DNA of 64,000 nucleotides from Gemmatimonadales bacterium (lineage in GTDB: Bacteria > Gemmatimonadota > Gemmatimonadetes > Gemmatimonadales > GWC2-71-9): NCBI GenBank assembly GCA_041613315.1, contig JBFJHJ010000003.1:1-64000 (forward strand), written 5' to 3'. The notes under the pieces were generated by a model. That model was not told the DNA's origin and ran no database searches. It saw only the letters and a list, made by a program, of their open reading frames with translations. Positions 40,475 to 46,757 of the stretch are shown piece after piece (the stretch's first letter is position 1; every line of letters begins with the position of its first letter). The position numbers and the translations under genes were made by a program.

Positions 40475-41065
40475 GTGCCCACCACCACGCTCACCACCGA
40501 CCGACTGCTGATCCGACCACCGCGGCTGGACGACGCCGAGGCGATCTTCGAGCGTTACGCGCAGGACCCCGAGGTCACGCGCTACCTGATCTGGCGACCG
40601 CATCGCTCGCTCGACGAAACGCGGACATTCCTGGGCGGGTACATCGCGCAGGGCGAGGACGAGCACCAGTACTCGTGGGTGATCGTGCGACGCGCGGACG
40701 AGCTGCTGCTGGGGACGATCACGCTCCGGGTCTATCCGCCGACGACCGAGGTGGGCTACACGGTGGCCAAGCCGGACTGGGGCCGCGGGTACGGCACGGA
40801 AGCGCTGCGGGCGGTCGTGCACTTCGGCCTCGCCCTCCCGGACGTCTTTCGCATCCAAGCTACCTGTCACGTCGATAACCACGCGTCTGCCCGGATCATG
40901 GACAAGGTTGGGATGGAGCGCGAAGGCACGCTGCGCCGTTACCTCTACTTCCCGACGATCGGCCCGGAAGCGCAGGACGTGCACATGTATGCCAGGGTCC
41001 AGGATGCGGTGGGGCAGGGGGGACCGGGGCGACGGGGCCCGCAGCGTGGGGACCGGGAGGTCTAG
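40475..41065 (+). CDS. GNAT N-acetyltransferase (RimJ/RimL-like)
   Basis: TDRLLIRP, EVGY, WGRGYGTEAL, NHASARIMDKVGM. Confidence 0.88.
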   Translation: MPTTTLTTDRLLIRPPRLDDAEAIFERYAQDPEVTRYLIWRPHRSLDETRTFLGGYIAQGEDEHQYSWVIVRRADELLLGTITLRVYPPTTEVGYTVAKPDWGRGYGTEALRAVVHFGLALPDVFRIQATCHVDNHASARIMDKVGMEREGTLRRYLYFPTIGPEAQDVHMYARVQDAVGQGGPGRRGPQRGDREV

Positions 41066-41066
41066 C

Positions 41067-42008
41067 GTGCGGATCGGCCGGCCGGGCCTGCGGCTCGCCT
41101 ATGCACTGGCGGGGGCGACGCTCGCCGCGTGCGCTACCCGCTCGGTGCCACGTGAAGCCGCACGGGACTTCTCCCATGGCACCCACGTCGTCCTCCTCGG
41201 GACCGGCACTCCCAATGCCGAGCCCGATCGGTCCGGCCCCGCCGTCGCCGTGGTCGTCAATGGCCGGGCGTATCTGGTGGACGCCGGGCCCGGCGTGGTC
41301 CGCCGGGCCGTGGCCGCGGCCCGCCTGGGCGTCGCGGCACTCGAGCCGCCGAACCTGGACCTCGTCTTCCTCACCCACCTCCATACCGACCACACCGTGG
41401 GCCTGCCCGATCTCATCTTCACGCCGTGGGTCCTGGAACGGACCGTGCCGCTTCGGGTGTACGGCCCGCCGGGCGTGCGCGCGATGACCGAACACCTCCT
41501 GGCCGCCTACGGGGAGGATGTCCGGATCCGGGTGGACGGGCTCGAGCCCGCCAACCCGACCGGCCACGGCGTGGAGGCGCACGAGATCCGCCCTGGCGTC
41601 GTGTACCGCGACGCGCAGGTCCGGGTGATCGCGTTCCCGGTGCACCACGGTTCCTGGGAGCACGCGTTCGGCTACCGGTTCGAGACCCCGGGACGGACGG
41701 TGGTCATCTCCGGTGACGCGGCGCCGAGCGAGAGCGTGGTGCAGTACTGCGACGGCTGCGACGTGCTCGTGCACGAGGTATATGCCCAGGCCGGCTTCGC
41801 GCGCCGGGCCCCCGAATGGCGGCGGTACCACGCCGACGCCCATACGTCCGCGCCTGCGCTGGCCGACCTGGCTCGGCGGGCTCGGCCGGGACTCCTCGTG
41901 CTGTACCACCAGCTCTACTGGGGAGCCACGCCCGAGGATCTTCTGGCCGAGATCCGGGAGCGCTGGGAGGGACAGGTCGTCTCCGGAGCCGATCTTCAGA
42001 TATACTGA
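41067..42008 (+). CDS. MBL-fold hydrolase (RNase Z/arylsulfatase-like) with lipoprotein signal
   Basis: LAAC lipobox; LGTGTP, VDAGPG, THLHTDH, SGD, VHE, HT, LYH motifs. Confidence 0.85.
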   Translation: MRIGRPGLRLAYALAGATLAACATRSVPREAARDFSHGTHVVLLGTGTPNAEPDRSGPAVAVVVNGRAYLVDAGPGVVRRAVAAARLGVAALEPPNLDLVFLTHLHTDHTVGLPDLIFTPWVLERTVPLRVYGPPGVRAMTEHLLAAYGEDVRIRVDGLEPANPTGHGVEAHEIRPGVVYRDAQVRVIAFPVHHGSWEHAFGYRFETPGRTVVISGDAAPSESVVQYCDGCDVLVHEVYAQAGFARRAPEWRRYHADAHTSAPALADLARRARPGLLVLYHQLYWGATPEDLLAEIRERWEGQVVSGADLQIY

Positions 42009-42125: not shown

Positions 42126-43376
42126 ATGGTCGTGTGGGAACCGCCCTCGAACCTCCCCGCGCCCCCCACGATCGAGGGGGCTCAGCACCTCCTCAGATCG
42201 GTGTGGGGGCTGAACCACCTCCGCAACCACCAGCGCCGGGCCATCGCCGCGGTTCTCAGTGGACGCGACACCCTCGCCGTGCTTCCGACGGGGGGAGGGA
42301 AATCCCTCTGCTATCAGCTCCCGGCCCTCCTCCGTCCCGGCCTCACCGTCGTGGTGTCGCCCCTGATCTCACTGATGCAGGACCAGGTGGCGGGACTGCG
42401 GGGGCGCGGCATCTCGGCAGCGTACTTGGGGAGTGGTCAGCGACCCCAAGTGCAAGCGGCAGTATGGAATACGATATCAACTGACCGGTTGACAATACTC
42501 TACGTCGCCCCCGAGCGCCTCCGCCAGCTCGTCGAGCGGCGCGTCACGGTGACCCTGCTCGCCGTCGATGAGGCGCATTGCATCAGTGAGTGGGGGCATG
42601 ATTTCCGGCCGCACTTTCGCGCCATCGGTCGCCGCCGGCGTGCCCTCGGCCACCCGCCCACGATCGCCGTGACGGCAACCGCGACGCCCGAAACGAGAGC
42701 AGATATCGTCCGTGTGCTGGAGCTCACGCGCCCCGTCACCATCGTACGGAGCTTCGACCGCCCAAACCTCTTCCTCGGCGCCCAGCGCTCCGGCGGGGAG
42801 GCACACCGTATTCGGACGCTCGCGACGCTGCTGCGCTCCTGCGGCGGTACTGCGATCGCGTACGTTCCGACCCGAAATCGAGCGGACGGGCTGGCTGCGA
42901 TCCTGCGACAATGGGGCTTCGACGCGGCACCCTATCACGCCGGCCTTCCCACAGGGGCGCGCCGGGCACTCCTCGCGAGATTTCTGAGCGGACGCATCAC
43001 GGTCATGGCGGCGACGAGCGCGTTCGGGATGGGGATCGACAAACCGGATGTGCGCCTCGTGGCTCACCTGGGGGTGCCGCAGAGGCCCGAGGCGTACTAC
43101 CAACAGGCCGGTAGAGCGGGCCGGGACGGCCTTGCCGCCCGATGTGTCCTGCTCTGGCTGCCCCGGGACCTGGAGCTGGGCGCCCGCTTGGCGCTGGGCC
43201 CGCGGGGCCGCGGCCCGAGGAAGACCCTCCAGGCAGCCCGAGCGGGCCTCGAGACGATGCGTCGCTACGCGACGACCGCCCGATGCCGCCGGCGGGTCCT
43301 GCTCGCGTACCTCGGCGAGCGACCGGATCGGTGCGCCGGCTGCGATCGCTGCTGCGGCTGGCCCCCATTGGTGTGA
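42126..43376 (+). CDS. recQ: Short RecQ-family DNA helicase
   Basis: PTGGGKSLCYQLP, SPLISLMQDQV, DEAHCISEWGHDFRP, AFGMGIDKPDVR, QAGRAGRDG, Zn site CRR..C..CDRC. Confidence 0.92.
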   Translation: MVVWEPPSNLPAPPTIEGAQHLLRSVWGLNHLRNHQRRAIAAVLSGRDTLAVLPTGGGKSLCYQLPALLRPGLTVVVSPLISLMQDQVAGLRGRGISAAYLGSGQRPQVQAAVWNTISTDRLTILYVAPERLRQLVERRVTVTLLAVDEAHCISEWGHDFRPHFRAIGRRRRALGHPPTIAVTATATPETRADIVRVLELTRPVTIVRSFDRPNLFLGAQRSGGEAHRIRTLATLLRSCGGTAIAYVPTRNRADGLAAILRQWGFDAAPYHAGLPTGARRALLARFLSGRITVMAATSAFGMGIDKPDVRLVAHLGVPQRPEAYYQQAGRAGRDGLAARCVLLWLPRDLELGARLALGPRGRGPRKTLQAARAGLETMRRYATTARCRRRVLLAYLGERPDRCAGCDRCCGWPPLV

Positions 43377-43510
43377 CACAGGCCCGTCGCCCGGCTCGTC
43401 GCAGCGGCTCTTGGGACTGCTCGACCGCGGCGACAGGATCGCGGCCATCGTCGGGGCAGCCCATTTTGAGTTTGGGCGTGGTGTGGTGCCACCAAGATGT
43501 GTCAGCCACC

Positions 43511-43640
43511 TGTCCCATTTTGCGAACAAATGTGCCGGTTTCGGGTCGGAGGACAGGCCGGCCGTTTTGTCATGGTTGGTGTGATGTGCTGGTTTTACAA
43601 TGACTTACGTGAGATGGAACTTCCTGGCACGGAACTTCCT
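43511..43640 (+). promoter_or_regulatory. Putative sigma54 promoter with IHF-like site and upstream activator-like palindrome
   Basis: TGGCACG-N4-TTCC (43625-43639; consensus TTGC, one mismatch); TTACAATGACTTA (43595-43607); TGT-N12-ACA (43511-43528). Locally AT-rich. Confidence 0.5.
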
Positions 43641-43650
43641 TATACGGTTG

Positions 43651-43770
43651 GCAAACAAGAAAAGTCTGCGGCGTTACTGAGCACCTTGCCGCCCGGCAAG
43701 TTCAAACTCGTCTGGAGGGGACGAGCGGGATCCCGCAAATGCCCGAGCTCAGTAGCGCCGCAGCTTTTTT
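43651..43770 (+). ncRNA. Candidate structured small RNA (unknown family)
   Basis: 17-bp closing helix (43666-43682 with 43747-43763) enclosing hairpins CTTGCC/GGCAAG, CTCGTC/GACGAG (loop TGGAGGG) and a CGGG/CCCG arm; followed by a T6 tract. Confidence 0.6.
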
Positions 43771-43934
43771 GTCGCCATGCTGCAGCTCAGGGTCAATATT
43801 GGGGTCGACCGCGGAATCGGCAAGTCTGACCCGTTGCCACCACCTCCCCATCGATCCTGTCGTTTGCGGAACCGAGAGCCCACGCCTGATACTTAGGCGA
43901 TGACACCTCAGCGTCTCGCTCCTCTGAACGTTCC

Positions 43935-45338
43935 GTGAGCGCCCCTCAGGCGATTCCAGCCTTTCCGCAGCAGCTCGAGTGGGTGAACGTCAGCCGCCCG
44001 CTCACGATCGACGATCTCAAGGGCCGCATTGCCGTCCTCGACTTCTGGACGTACGGCTGAATCAATTGCCAGCACATGCTGCCGCAGTTGCGGCGGCTCG
44101 AGGAGGCGATCGGCGACGATGTCGTGGTGGTGGGTGTGCACGCCGGCAAGTTCATCGCCGAACGGGAGACGTCGCGGATCCGTCACGCCACGCGACGTCT
44201 CGGCGTCCGACACCCCGTGGTCAATGACCGGCAGTTCCGGATCTGGCGGGCCTACGGCGTGCAGGCGTGGCCCACGCTCGTGTTCGTGGCGCCCGACGGA
44301 AGCTACCTCGGATCGCACGCGGGCGAGGTTCCGGCGTCGGCGCTGATTCAGGCGGTGAGCGACGTGCGCGACGGCGTGCGGGACCAGCTCACCCGACCGC
44401 CGCTGCCGCTCGATCCTGAGCCGGCGGCCGGCGACGGGCTCCGCTATCCCGCGAAGATCGCGGCGCACGGTGGCCGGCTCTACGTGGCGGATACCGGCAA
44501 TGGTCGAGTTCTCGAGTGCGAGCCGTCTTCCGCGACGCTCGCGGTCCGCCGCGTGATCGGCGACGGGGTCTTCGAGGCGCCCCATGGGATGGCCATCGTC
44601 GCGGACCGGCTGTACGTGTCCGACCCGCCGGCACACCGTATCTTCGCCGCCGAGTTGGCCGACGGGTCCGCGGCACCCGCGGTGTCGGCCGTGGCGGGCA
44701 CGGGAGAGCAGGCTCGCGGCTGCCCGTCCGGCGCCGTCGCGGCCGCCAAGACCCCCCTCAGCTCGCCGTGGGACGTGGCCTCGCACGATCACACGCTCTA
44801 TATCGCGATGGCAGGAACCCACCAGGTGTGGGCCCTGGACCTCCGCACCGGAACGCTCGGACGGCACGCGGGGAGCGGAGCGGAGAGCATCGATGACGGG
44901 CCGCCGGCCGCGGCGACCTTTGCGCAGCCCTCGGGTCTCGCGGTGCACCAGGGATGGCTCTACGTCGCCGATGCCGAGTCCAGCGCCGTCCGCCGGGCCG
45001 GCCTCGCGGCCGACGGGACCGTCGAGACCCTCGTCGGGACGGGCCTGTTCGATTTCGGGGACCGGGACGGCACCGGAAACGTGGTCCGACTCCAACACGT
45101 GCTCGGTCTGGGCGTGTGGCGGAACGGGCTGGTGCTCGCCGACGCATACAACGACGCGCTCAAACTGCTCGACCCCACGCGCCGCAGCGTCCGGGCGCTG
45201 ACGCGCGGCCTCCATGAGCCCGGTGGCCTCGCCGTGGTGGGGGACGTCGCGTACGTGGCGGATACGAACGCCCATCGTGTGGTGGCGGTGGACCTCCAGG
45301 GAGGCGAGATGCGCGAGCTCACCCTGAACGCGTCATGA
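43935..45338 (+). CDS. Thioredoxin-like + NHL-repeat protein (NHLRC2/SOQ1-like), probable selenoprotein (Sec42)
   Basis: From GTG 43935: ...EWVNVSRPLTIDDLKGRIAVLDFWTYG[TGA 44058-44060]INCQHMLPQL...VGVHAGKF...WPTLV, followed by NHL repeats (LYVADTGNGRV, FAQPSGLA, YVADTNAHRV). Confidence 0.85.
44078..44097 (+). promoter_or_regulatory. Putative bacterial SECIS hairpin
   Basis: GCTGCCGC-AGTT-GCGGCGGC stem-loop starting 17 nt after the in-frame TGA, with a G in the apical loop. Confidence 0.6.
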
Positions 45339-45404
45339 TGGCGCGCTTCCCCGAGGGACCCCGCCCCCCTACCTTCCACACATGACCTCTTCGAGGGGGA
45401 CGCC

Positions 45405-46757
45405 GTGACGCCGCTGCGGAACGTGCTCAAGCGTCGGTGGCCTCTCGGTCTCGCTGCGCTGTGCGTGGCCACCGTACCCACCGGCCTCTACGCCCAGGCG
45501 GTCGTCTACCGGATTCCGGTGACCGGAACGATCGAGCTCGGCCTCGCCCCGTATATCGAGCGCGCGTTGCGGGACGCCGGCGCGTCGGGGGCGCGCGTCG
45601 CGATTCTCGATGTCAACACCCTGGGTGGGCGCGTGGATGCCGCCCTGCACATCGTGGACGCGATCGGGCGCACCGAGATCCCGGTGTACGCTTTCGTGGA
45701 CCCGCGGGCGATTTCCGCAGGGGCTTTGATCTCCATGGCGACCGATTCCGTGTTCATGACGCCGGACGCCCAGATCGGCGCCTCCACGGTCGTCACCGCG
45801 GAAGGCGTCAAGGTCTCGGAGAAGGCGCAGAGCGTGATGCGCGCACAGTTCCGGGCCCTCGCCGAGCGCCGCGGACTCGACCCGCGAATCGGCGAGGCGA
45901 TGGTGGACGAAGACATCGCCATCGAGGGCGTGATCGAAGCTGGGAAGCTGCTTACCCTCACGGCGGATGAGGCGGTGCGCGTGGGTTACGCCGTGCGCGT
46001 GGAGAGCTTCGACGACCTCTTGGAGCAGCTCGGGCTGGGCGGCGCCGAGGTCGTCTCTCCCACCCTCAACTGGGCGGAACAGCTCGTGCGGTTCCTGTCG
46101 CACCCGCTGGTTTCGCCGTTGCTCCTGTCCCTGGGTGTGCTGGGACTGATGATCGAGATCAAGACGCCGTCCTTCGGGTTCGCCGGGGCCGTGGGGCTCA
46201 TTTCGCTGGCGGCGTTTTTCGGGAGCCACCTGATCATTGGGCTCGCGGGGTTGGAAGAGGTGATCTTGCTGGGGGTCGGGCTGGTGGCGCTCGGGATCGA
46301 GGTCTTCGTCGTGCCCGGCTTCGGCGTGGCGGGCGTCGTCGCGATCCTGTGCATCGGCACGGCGACGTTCCTGGCGTTGATCGGCAGCCTCCCCACGTGG
46401 GGGGATATCGCGCGGGCCAGCGGCATCCTGTTCGTGAGCGCGGTGATCGTCACCGGGGTGATCTACTTTTTCGTGCGCCACCTCCCGATCAGCGAGCGGT
46501 GGCGCGGCGTGCTGCTTCGGGCGGCGACGGACCGGACGATGGGCTACGTCGCCGGAGCGACGCGCGACGACCTCGTGGGGACGGAGGGCGTCGCCGTCAC
46601 CGACCTCCGGCCCTCCGGTACCGTTCGGATCGGCGACGAGCGCCTCGACGTGGTTTCGGACGTGGGCTTTATCGCAAAGGGGGCCCGCGTGCGCATCATT
46701 CGGTCTGAGGCGTATCGCCATGTCGTTGAGCCGATTGAGGACGCCGTCCAGGCCTGA
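45405..46757 (+). CDS. NfeD-family membrane-bound serine protease (YqeZ-like)
   Basis: Signal peptide, NTLGG, AISAGALI, KLLTLT, TM bundle, C-terminal OB fold (TDLRPSG). Confidence 0.92.
   Translation: MTPLRNVLKRRWPLGLAALCVATVPTGLYAQAVVYRIPVTGTIELGLAPYIERALRDAGASGARVAILDVNTLGGRVDAALHIVDAIGRTEIPVYAFVDPRAISAGALISMATDSVFMTPDAQIGASTVVTAEGVKVSEKAQSVMRAQFRALAERRGLDPRIGEAMVDEDIAIEGVIEAGKLLTLTADEAVRVGYAVRVESFDDLLEQLGLGGAEVVSPTLNWAEQLVRFLSHPLVSPLLLSLGVLGLMIEIKTPSFGFAGAVGLISLAAFFGSHLIIGLAGLEEVILLGVGLVALGIEVFVVPGFGVAGVVAILCIGTATFLALIGSLPTWGDIARASGILFVSAVIVTGVIYFFVRHLPISERWRGVLLRAATDRTMGYVAGATRDDLVGTEGVAVTDLRPSGTVRIGDERLDVVSDVGFIAKGARVRIIRSEAYRHVVEPIEDAVQA

Follow-up and report, generated by a model that had tools for sequence, protein, structure and literature searches.

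A predicted selenocysteine-containing member of the NHLRC2/SOQ1 family, with a thioredoxin-like domain and an NHL propeller, in a Gemmatimonadales genome

Does the TGA within a thioredoxin-NHL reading frame of a Gemmatimonadales bacterium end the gene or encode selenocysteine (Sec), and if it encodes Sec, what would the resulting enzyme do? The locus lies in a window of 64,000 nucleotides (assembly GCA_041613315.1, contig JBFJHJ010000003.1, positions 1 to 64,000), the whole stretch of DNA that was analysed. The favoured explanation, with a probability of roughly 0.85, is that the locus is a single gene for a selenoenzyme that belongs to the NHLRC2/SOQ1 family and works in the cytoplasm.

A first-pass annotation, made from the sequence alone, had claimed that the frame runs back through one TGA to a GTG codon and encodes 467 amino acids (aa). 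The frame, which holds a single interruption on the forward strand, confirms this. The TGA is codon 42 and is surrounded by the residues ...LKGRIAVLDFWTYG-U-INCQHMLP (DFWTYG-U-INCQHMLP). The GTG is the probable start, as homolog alignments begin at residues 1-10. The apparent stop codon almost certainly encodes Sec at the active site of the predicted protein:

43935-45338, forward strand: full gene, GTG start, stop TGA at 45336-45338; predicted 467-aa selenoprotein of the NHLRC2/SOQ1 type (Trx-like domain plus NHL beta-propeller)
44058-44060, forward strand: in-frame TGA for the predicted selenocysteine U42, which opens the UxxC motif (U42-I-N-C45)
44067-44069, forward strand: Cys45, predicted resolving cysteine from homolog alignment (SOQ1 C434, NHLRC2 C93)

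The annotation had also equated the TGA with the first Cys of the CxxC motif. That position holds, but in NHLRC2's and SOQ1's CCINC motif it is the second Cys, and the first is Gly here: G41, U42 and C45 align with C89, C90 and C93 of NHLRC2 and with C430, C431 and C434 of SOQ1. The CC(I/V)NC motif is thus G-U-INC in this protein, with the position of the redox pair kept, and GCINC or GCVNC occurs in 34 of 116 motif-bearing library proteins. A sequencing error, named by the annotation as counter-evidence, finds no support in four runs of marine metagenomes, taken from two studies, whose assembled contigs (rather than the raw reads) show no other letter at the TGA; three of the four runs are possibly the source of this very DNA.

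Downstream of the TGA lies the hairpin that the annotation had placed where bacterial SECIS elements are found:

44078-44097, forward strand: bacterial SECIS hairpin, 8-bp stem 44078-44085/44090-44097, loop AGUU 44086-44089 (folding and homolog conservation)

Its loop lies 25 nt past the UGA and has G at position 2, its energy is -15.3 kcal/mol, and it is found in both the MFE and the centroid structures. In segments of 50-53 nt its z value is -2.7 to -3.0 (1-3 of 200 shuffles equally stable); in segments of 73-103 nt it is weaker, -1.6 and -1.2. The SECIS model used was our own script of published constraints, not bSECISearch, and demands a perfect stem. The constraints (PMC13188914, Fig. 2 legend) are a loop of 3-9 nt, a stem of 4-16 bp, a distance of 16-37 nt from the UGA, G in the first two loop positions and an energy of <= -7.5 kcal/mol. 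The hairpin satisfies all of them. Alone it is modest evidence, because 7487 of the 52849 TGA triplets (14%) of this 70%-GC genome satisfy the model as well; conservation is what counts. The model is satisfied by 53 of the 60 TGA copies of the gene, the other seven failing the perfect-stem version, and by 1 of 35 Cys copies; in a Chloroflexota sample, the figures are 25 of 26 and 0 of 4. The claimed hairpin is thus conserved in TGA copies.

The constraint extends to single codons and base pairs, counted over 124 non-redundant loci (85 TGA, 39 Cys) whose kinship inflates the numbers. The Leu at codon +10 after the TGA is written TTG in 73 of 74 TGA copies and in 3 of 39 Cys copies, and the TTG share among the other Leu codons of the same TGA genes is 241/3256. 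Of the 85 TGA copies, 77 keep stem pair 21:34, written as C-G, U-A, U-G or G-C, and 82 keep pair 23:32, which 5 of 39 Cys copies have. The hairpin is gone in six Cys copies nested among Sec copies (L028, L046, L057, L114, L118 and L130). The first three of these (genomes G046, G357 and G307) are probable Sec-to-Cys reversions, in which selB is still present and the hairpin has decayed. Two further SECIS variants were observed: one, mostly from Actinomycetota, encodes PRV for PQL and has a 6-nt loop (L096, L105, L110-L112, L116, L117, L131, L132, L045), and the other encodes PAL (L158, L162, L166, L168, L170). Over 43300-45500, no Rfam match and no sigma-70 promoter were found.

The annotation had proposed a test of whether the active-site column alternates between TGA and TGY. 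Protein searches seeded with this gene gave 99 loci, reduced to 95 by removing two duplicates and two distant motif-less loci. These loci are mutually related, not independent; 60 of the 95 have TGA and 35 have TGC or TGT in the column, and the Cys45 codon is TGC or TGT in all 95. In the 124 non-redundant loci the column is TGA in 85 and Cys in 39, never TAA or TAG. A Chloroflexota sample gave a homolog in 80 of 401 genomes, the best 30 of the 80 loci comprising 26 TGA and 4 Cys copies. The column does alternate, and the TGA, far from being unique to one strain, as the annotation had allowed, is common to several phyla with its hairpin conserved; it occurs in Gemmatimonadota, Chloroflexota, Actinomycetota, Rokubacteria and one record titled Eubacteriales. 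A metagenome DNA scan, from which 80 of 120 loci were analysed, demanded TGA plus the hairpin core, so that its 80/80 TGA count is circular and was used for architecture only.

The distribution is patchy, since none of 166 sampled genomes of the window's own family matched at E 1e-60 and the sequences nearest to this gene belong to another family than the host's. Two quick trees, with motif and SECIS codons masked and deep branches weak, need six Sec/Cys changes (tree 1, 89 rows) and seven (tree 2, 106 rows, leaving out 19 Gemmatimonadota rows, two long-branch rows and frames <370 aa). A single origin of Sec is accordingly not established. That several phyla have one and the same hairpin core at an equal offset suggests shared descent of the Sec form, with reversions and transfer. 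In six loci (L109, L124, L131, L132, L056 and L095) the frame stops early or enters unrelated sequence, which probably reflects assembly frameshifts.

The machinery for Sec insertion, the absence of which the annotation had named as decisive against a selenoprotein, is present. In this genome (2.63 Mb, 83% complete), selA, selB, selC and selD were all found: the profile matches for selA (E 2e-132), selB (E 3e-98) and selD (E 4e-111) are over cut-off, and a tRNA-Sec with anticodon TCA is the sole TCA-anticodon tRNA found. The selD gene has its own in-frame TGA, and beyond it and the gene under study one SelW-like and two AhpD-like genes are likely selenoprotein genes (contigs C2, C16, C18 and C28 of the genome):

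C2:62857-63789, forward strand: SelD, likely selenoprotein
C18:35888-36118, forward strand: SelW-like likely selenoprotein, over NCBIfam cut-off
C28:39997-40587, forward strand: AhpD/peroxidase-related CxxU likely selenoprotein
C16:21846-22397, reverse strand: AhpD/peroxidase-related CxxU likely selenoprotein

A hand tally over 71 other homolog-bearing genomes (71 of 96 loci, the 25 left out all being TGA copies) found selB over cut-off in 32 of 36 TGA genomes versus 16 of 35 Cys genomes. It includes the unpublished genomes G090, G442 and G471, all TGA rows, without which the first figure is 29 of 33. Two of the four TGA genomes that lack selB, G078 and G448, do have selA together with tRNA-Sec. 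The other two, G437 (2.1 Mb) and G449 (1.3 Mb), are small assemblies in which neither selA nor selB was found; for tRNA-Sec, the former has marginal matches only and the latter none.

What kind of protein would carry this Sec? The annotation had called it a thioredoxin-NHL fusion of the NHLRC2/SOQ1 type, and Pfam domains (Thioredoxin_8, AhpC-TSA, NHL), PDB matches and the predicted structure agree. Two domains are recognised:

43935-44390, forward strand: thioredoxin-like (TlpA/Trx8-type) domain, residues ~1-152 (Pfam Thioredoxin_8 over cut-off at residues 30-123; AF2 secondary structure)
44445-45329, forward strand: six-bladed NHL beta-propeller, residues ~171-465 (Pfam NHL; match to 6g7w at residues 171-455)

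The best PDB sequence matches over residues 6-462 are NHLRC2 (6gc1, E 7.9e-73) and SOQ1 (7djj, E 8.9e-73). For the AF2 model, Sec was replaced by Cys and a 95-row alignment served as input; the model reaches pLDDT 96.8 and pTM 0.94, and Foldseek gives it TM 0.92 to 6gc1 and 7djk; a single-sequence AF2 model with pLDDT 37 was set aside. No NCBIfam model (June 2026) is over cut-off for this protein or four homologs.

Human NHLRC2 (6GC1) shares with the window protein the Trx-like domain and six-bladed propeller (~35% identity), the CxxC in the inter-domain cleft and the lack of a signal peptide. The window protein differs in having G-U-INC for C-C-INC, with Sec predicted from UGA plus SECIS, and in lacking the C-terminal beta domain of NHLRC2 (C689/C696). 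With the lumenal region of Arabidopsis SOQ1 (7DJJ/7DJK) it shares the two-domain core, U42/C45 in place of C431/C434, and the interface residues. A hand mapping on the PDB alignment equates SOQ1 Y429/R478/E859 with Y40/R88/E428, and in alignment A2, R88, E428 and Cys45 are nearly invariant and W112-P113, with the cis-Pro, is invariant. The HAD domain, the transmembrane helix and the nDsbD-like C-terminal domain (CTD) of SOQ1, with its proposed methionine-sulfoxide reductase (Msr) pair C1006/C1012, are all missing, and the window protein is probably cytoplasmic, whereas the SOQ1 region is lumenal.

The literature on these relatives bears on function. According to PMC6107167, the NHLRC2 motif lies in the cleft between the domains, the protein has no insulin-reductase activity, bacterial orthologs without a CTD and without a conserved operon are already noted, and the family is argued not to do thiol-disulfide exchange. 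A later SOQ1 study (bioRxiv 2021.03.16.435614) reports that C431S or C434S abolishes function and that Y429, R478 and E859 form the domain interface. More recent work (10.1101/2024.11.01.621559) describes electron transfer from the Trx domain of SOQ1 to its nDsbD-like CTD, credits Msr activity to the CTD Cys pair and finds SOQ1, like NHLRC2, inactive in the insulin reduction assay, a result that counts against the reading favoured here. The chemistry of the family is less obscure than the annotation's remark on its substrate implied, given the relay and Msr activity reported for SOQ1, but this copy has no CTD.

In the mechanism proposed here, SelB bound to Sec-tRNA(Sec) would, very probably and on comparative evidence, recognise the hairpin 25 nt downstream and insert Sec at UGA 44058. 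With a confidence scarcely lower, the model predicts that the protein folds like NHLRC2, its Trx-like domain packed on the six-bladed propeller and UxxC facing the inter-domain cleft. Judging from the CxxC position and from SOQ1 C431/C434, it is likely that U42 would be the attacking nucleophile and C45 would resolve the selenenyl-sulfide, which the thioredoxin or low-molecular-weight thiol system of the cell would re-reduce. The propeller may select the substrate. It is slightly favoured that the enzyme would reduce a disulfide in another protein, bound in the cleft between Trx domain and propeller, in oxidative-stress repair or redox control.

A separate protein is put forward as electron acceptor because no CTD is present in cis and none was found in trans. 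The protein ends after the propeller, without the nDsbD-like CTD and its Cys pair, and a CTD profile built from Cys homologs gave no match in a six-frame search of this 83%-complete genome, the missing part of which may still contain such a gene. The same profile is strong in 18 of 35 Cys genomes (13 of which supplied it) and in none of 37 TGA genomes, with one weak match (E 8e-5), and no stand-alone CTD gene was found in the 37 Sec genomes searched. No CTD-length tail follows any of 56 complete TGA frames, and the search for a CTD match was likewise negative in the 26 TGA genes of Chloroflexota and in the 48 complete ones from the metagenomes.

This near exclusion could also be read in another, rather unlikely way: Sec is inserted, and the enzyme, having no CTD, would itself reduce methionine sulfoxide or peroxide, with a more reactive selenol in its cleft standing in for the SOQ1 CTD cysteine pair. 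Oxidised LCNP is restored by the lumenal domains of SOQ1, according to 10.1101/2024.11.01.621559, which suits this reading, but the same source assigns the Msr activity to the CTD, and the fold is that of a TlpA/ResA-type disulfide reductase. CTD loss moreover appears independent of Sec, because many Cys forms also lack the domain (17 of 33 complete frames are short). Finally, protein P0055, annotated from an ATG directly after the TGA and showing a CTD-profile match, led to three Anaerolineae-class genomes (L304 in G1042, L305 in G983, L306 in G1154) that encode both Sec and an intact CTD Cys pair: the motif is C-U-MNC, selB is present, the hairpin is the same, and a tail of CTD length has the Cys pair at its end. 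The notion that Sec forms never carry the CTD is thus false.

The preferred reading, a cytoplasmic reductase with a separate partner, also draws on localization. In a crude hydropathy test, the N-terminal hydrophobic segment is absent in 83 of 85 TGA copies and present in 11 of 17 long Cys forms; the Sec forms thus appear to stay in the cytoplasm and mostly to lack the CTD, and many of the long Cys forms appear to be exported. As it has neither CTD nor signal peptide, the window protein probably works in the cytoplasm as a reductase of a separate partner. The neighbourhood indicates no partner, as no flanking ORF of the window matched the flank of another locus (flanks of 1.5-3 kb only); the gene sits between a RecQ-type helicase and nfeD-floA:

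40908-42008, forward strand: metallo-beta-lactamase-fold protein, upstream
42126-43376, forward strand: short RecQ-type helicase, 416 aa
45405-48295, forward strand: nfeD1b-floA operon plus a 163-aa downstream gene without Pfam match, beginning 66 bp after the selenoprotein gene

The metagenome loci L184, L190, L192, L193, L235, L251 and, partially, L196 encode another thioredoxin-like protein, which stands alone. It has ~170 aa, an N-terminal signal-like segment and E/DFWTxG-U-INC, with TGA and the same hairpin core and without a propeller. It is apparently an exported DipZ/ResA-like selenoprotein and may correspond to the published 'Redoxin family' entry; L184 has no NCBIfam model over cut-off.

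Far less probable is a pseudogene or split gene, in which the TGA is a true stop and only a 420-aa product without the redox motif is made from ATG 44076. Gene callers do record that form, as the annotation had foreseen: in the table-11 ORF list the gene begins at ATG 44076, the public protein collection includes the truncated 420-aa product, among the 150 best library representatives 12 start immediately past the motif, and the names given to truncated versions in databases include 'hypothetical protein' and 'sugar lactone lactonase YvrE'. Such records are outweighed by a TGA that recurs at this codon in 85 of 124 loci, spread over several phyla, by a GC3 of 0.85 upstream of the TGA against 0.86 for the whole gene, by the synonymous constraint that forms the hairpin and by the Sec machinery. 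Least probable of all, with no finding in its favour, is a changed code or leaky read-through that would turn the TGA into another residue (Trp, Gly or Cys), or a sequencing error. The gene's own end is a TGA, at the place where the homologs stop too; TGA closes more of the Sec copies than any other stop codon (44 of 85); the only TCA-anticodon tRNA found is tRNA-Sec; Cys is the sole alternative in the column among close homologs; and the TGA is kept in the contigs of four runs. A true stop and a changed code are, even taken together, very unlikely.

The selenium form of the NHLRC2/SOQ1 family seems to be undescribed in print, although the UGA recoding mechanism itself is familiar from textbooks. 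An NHL-repeat entry may occur in older Zhang/Gladyshev selenoprotein lists. Literature searches found no paper describing a Sec form of the family, which BSepDB entries or bioRxiv supplements may nevertheless include. The available part of a 2026 review (PMC13188914) has no NHL, NHLRC2 or SOQ1 entry among its 119 prokaryotic selenoprotein families, where generic thioredoxin-like entries could hide this one, and the nine new deep-Sep families, so far as the source extends, do not include it. Neither NHL nor UINC was found in the supplements of PMC2398784 and PMC5029168, in 12 of 17 supplementary files of PMC9402790 or in part of the PMC13326102 file; the 20 'nhl' matches in the PMC2398784 sequence file are letter strings in the passages displayed, and those in the corresponding portion of PMC13326102 belong to a genome list. 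Table 1 of the review, in its accessible part, lists Trx-fold UxxC families, namely a Prx-like thiol:disulfide oxidoreductase (PF00578) and the Redoxin family (PF08534), as well as a UGC-containing TlpA and a thiol-disulfide isomerase-like family (cd02966). The window protein shares with them Sec first in CxxC, an in-frame bacterial SECIS and Cys-containing homologs; compared by description in that part of the table, none is listed with an NHL propeller or xUINC, and the 'Redoxin family' may overlap.

The finding adds a family to the bacterial selenoproteome. Sec almost always marks a catalytic redox residue, and its position here therefore points independently to NHLRC2 C90 and SOQ1 C431 as the nucleophile. 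Human NHLRC2 is essential and disease-linked. It is a doubtful but wider proposal that there is a widespread unpublished Sec branch of NHLRC2/SOQ1 with two forms, one with the CTD as a natural Sec relay and one without it that would act directly on oxidised proteins, for example on methionine sulfoxide. If true, the direct-acting CTD-less branch would make the chemistry of NHLRC2, the FINCA-disease protein, approachable through a soluble bacterial relative. The natural Sec/Cys pairs and the pairs with and without the CTD make the SOQ1 relay model testable.
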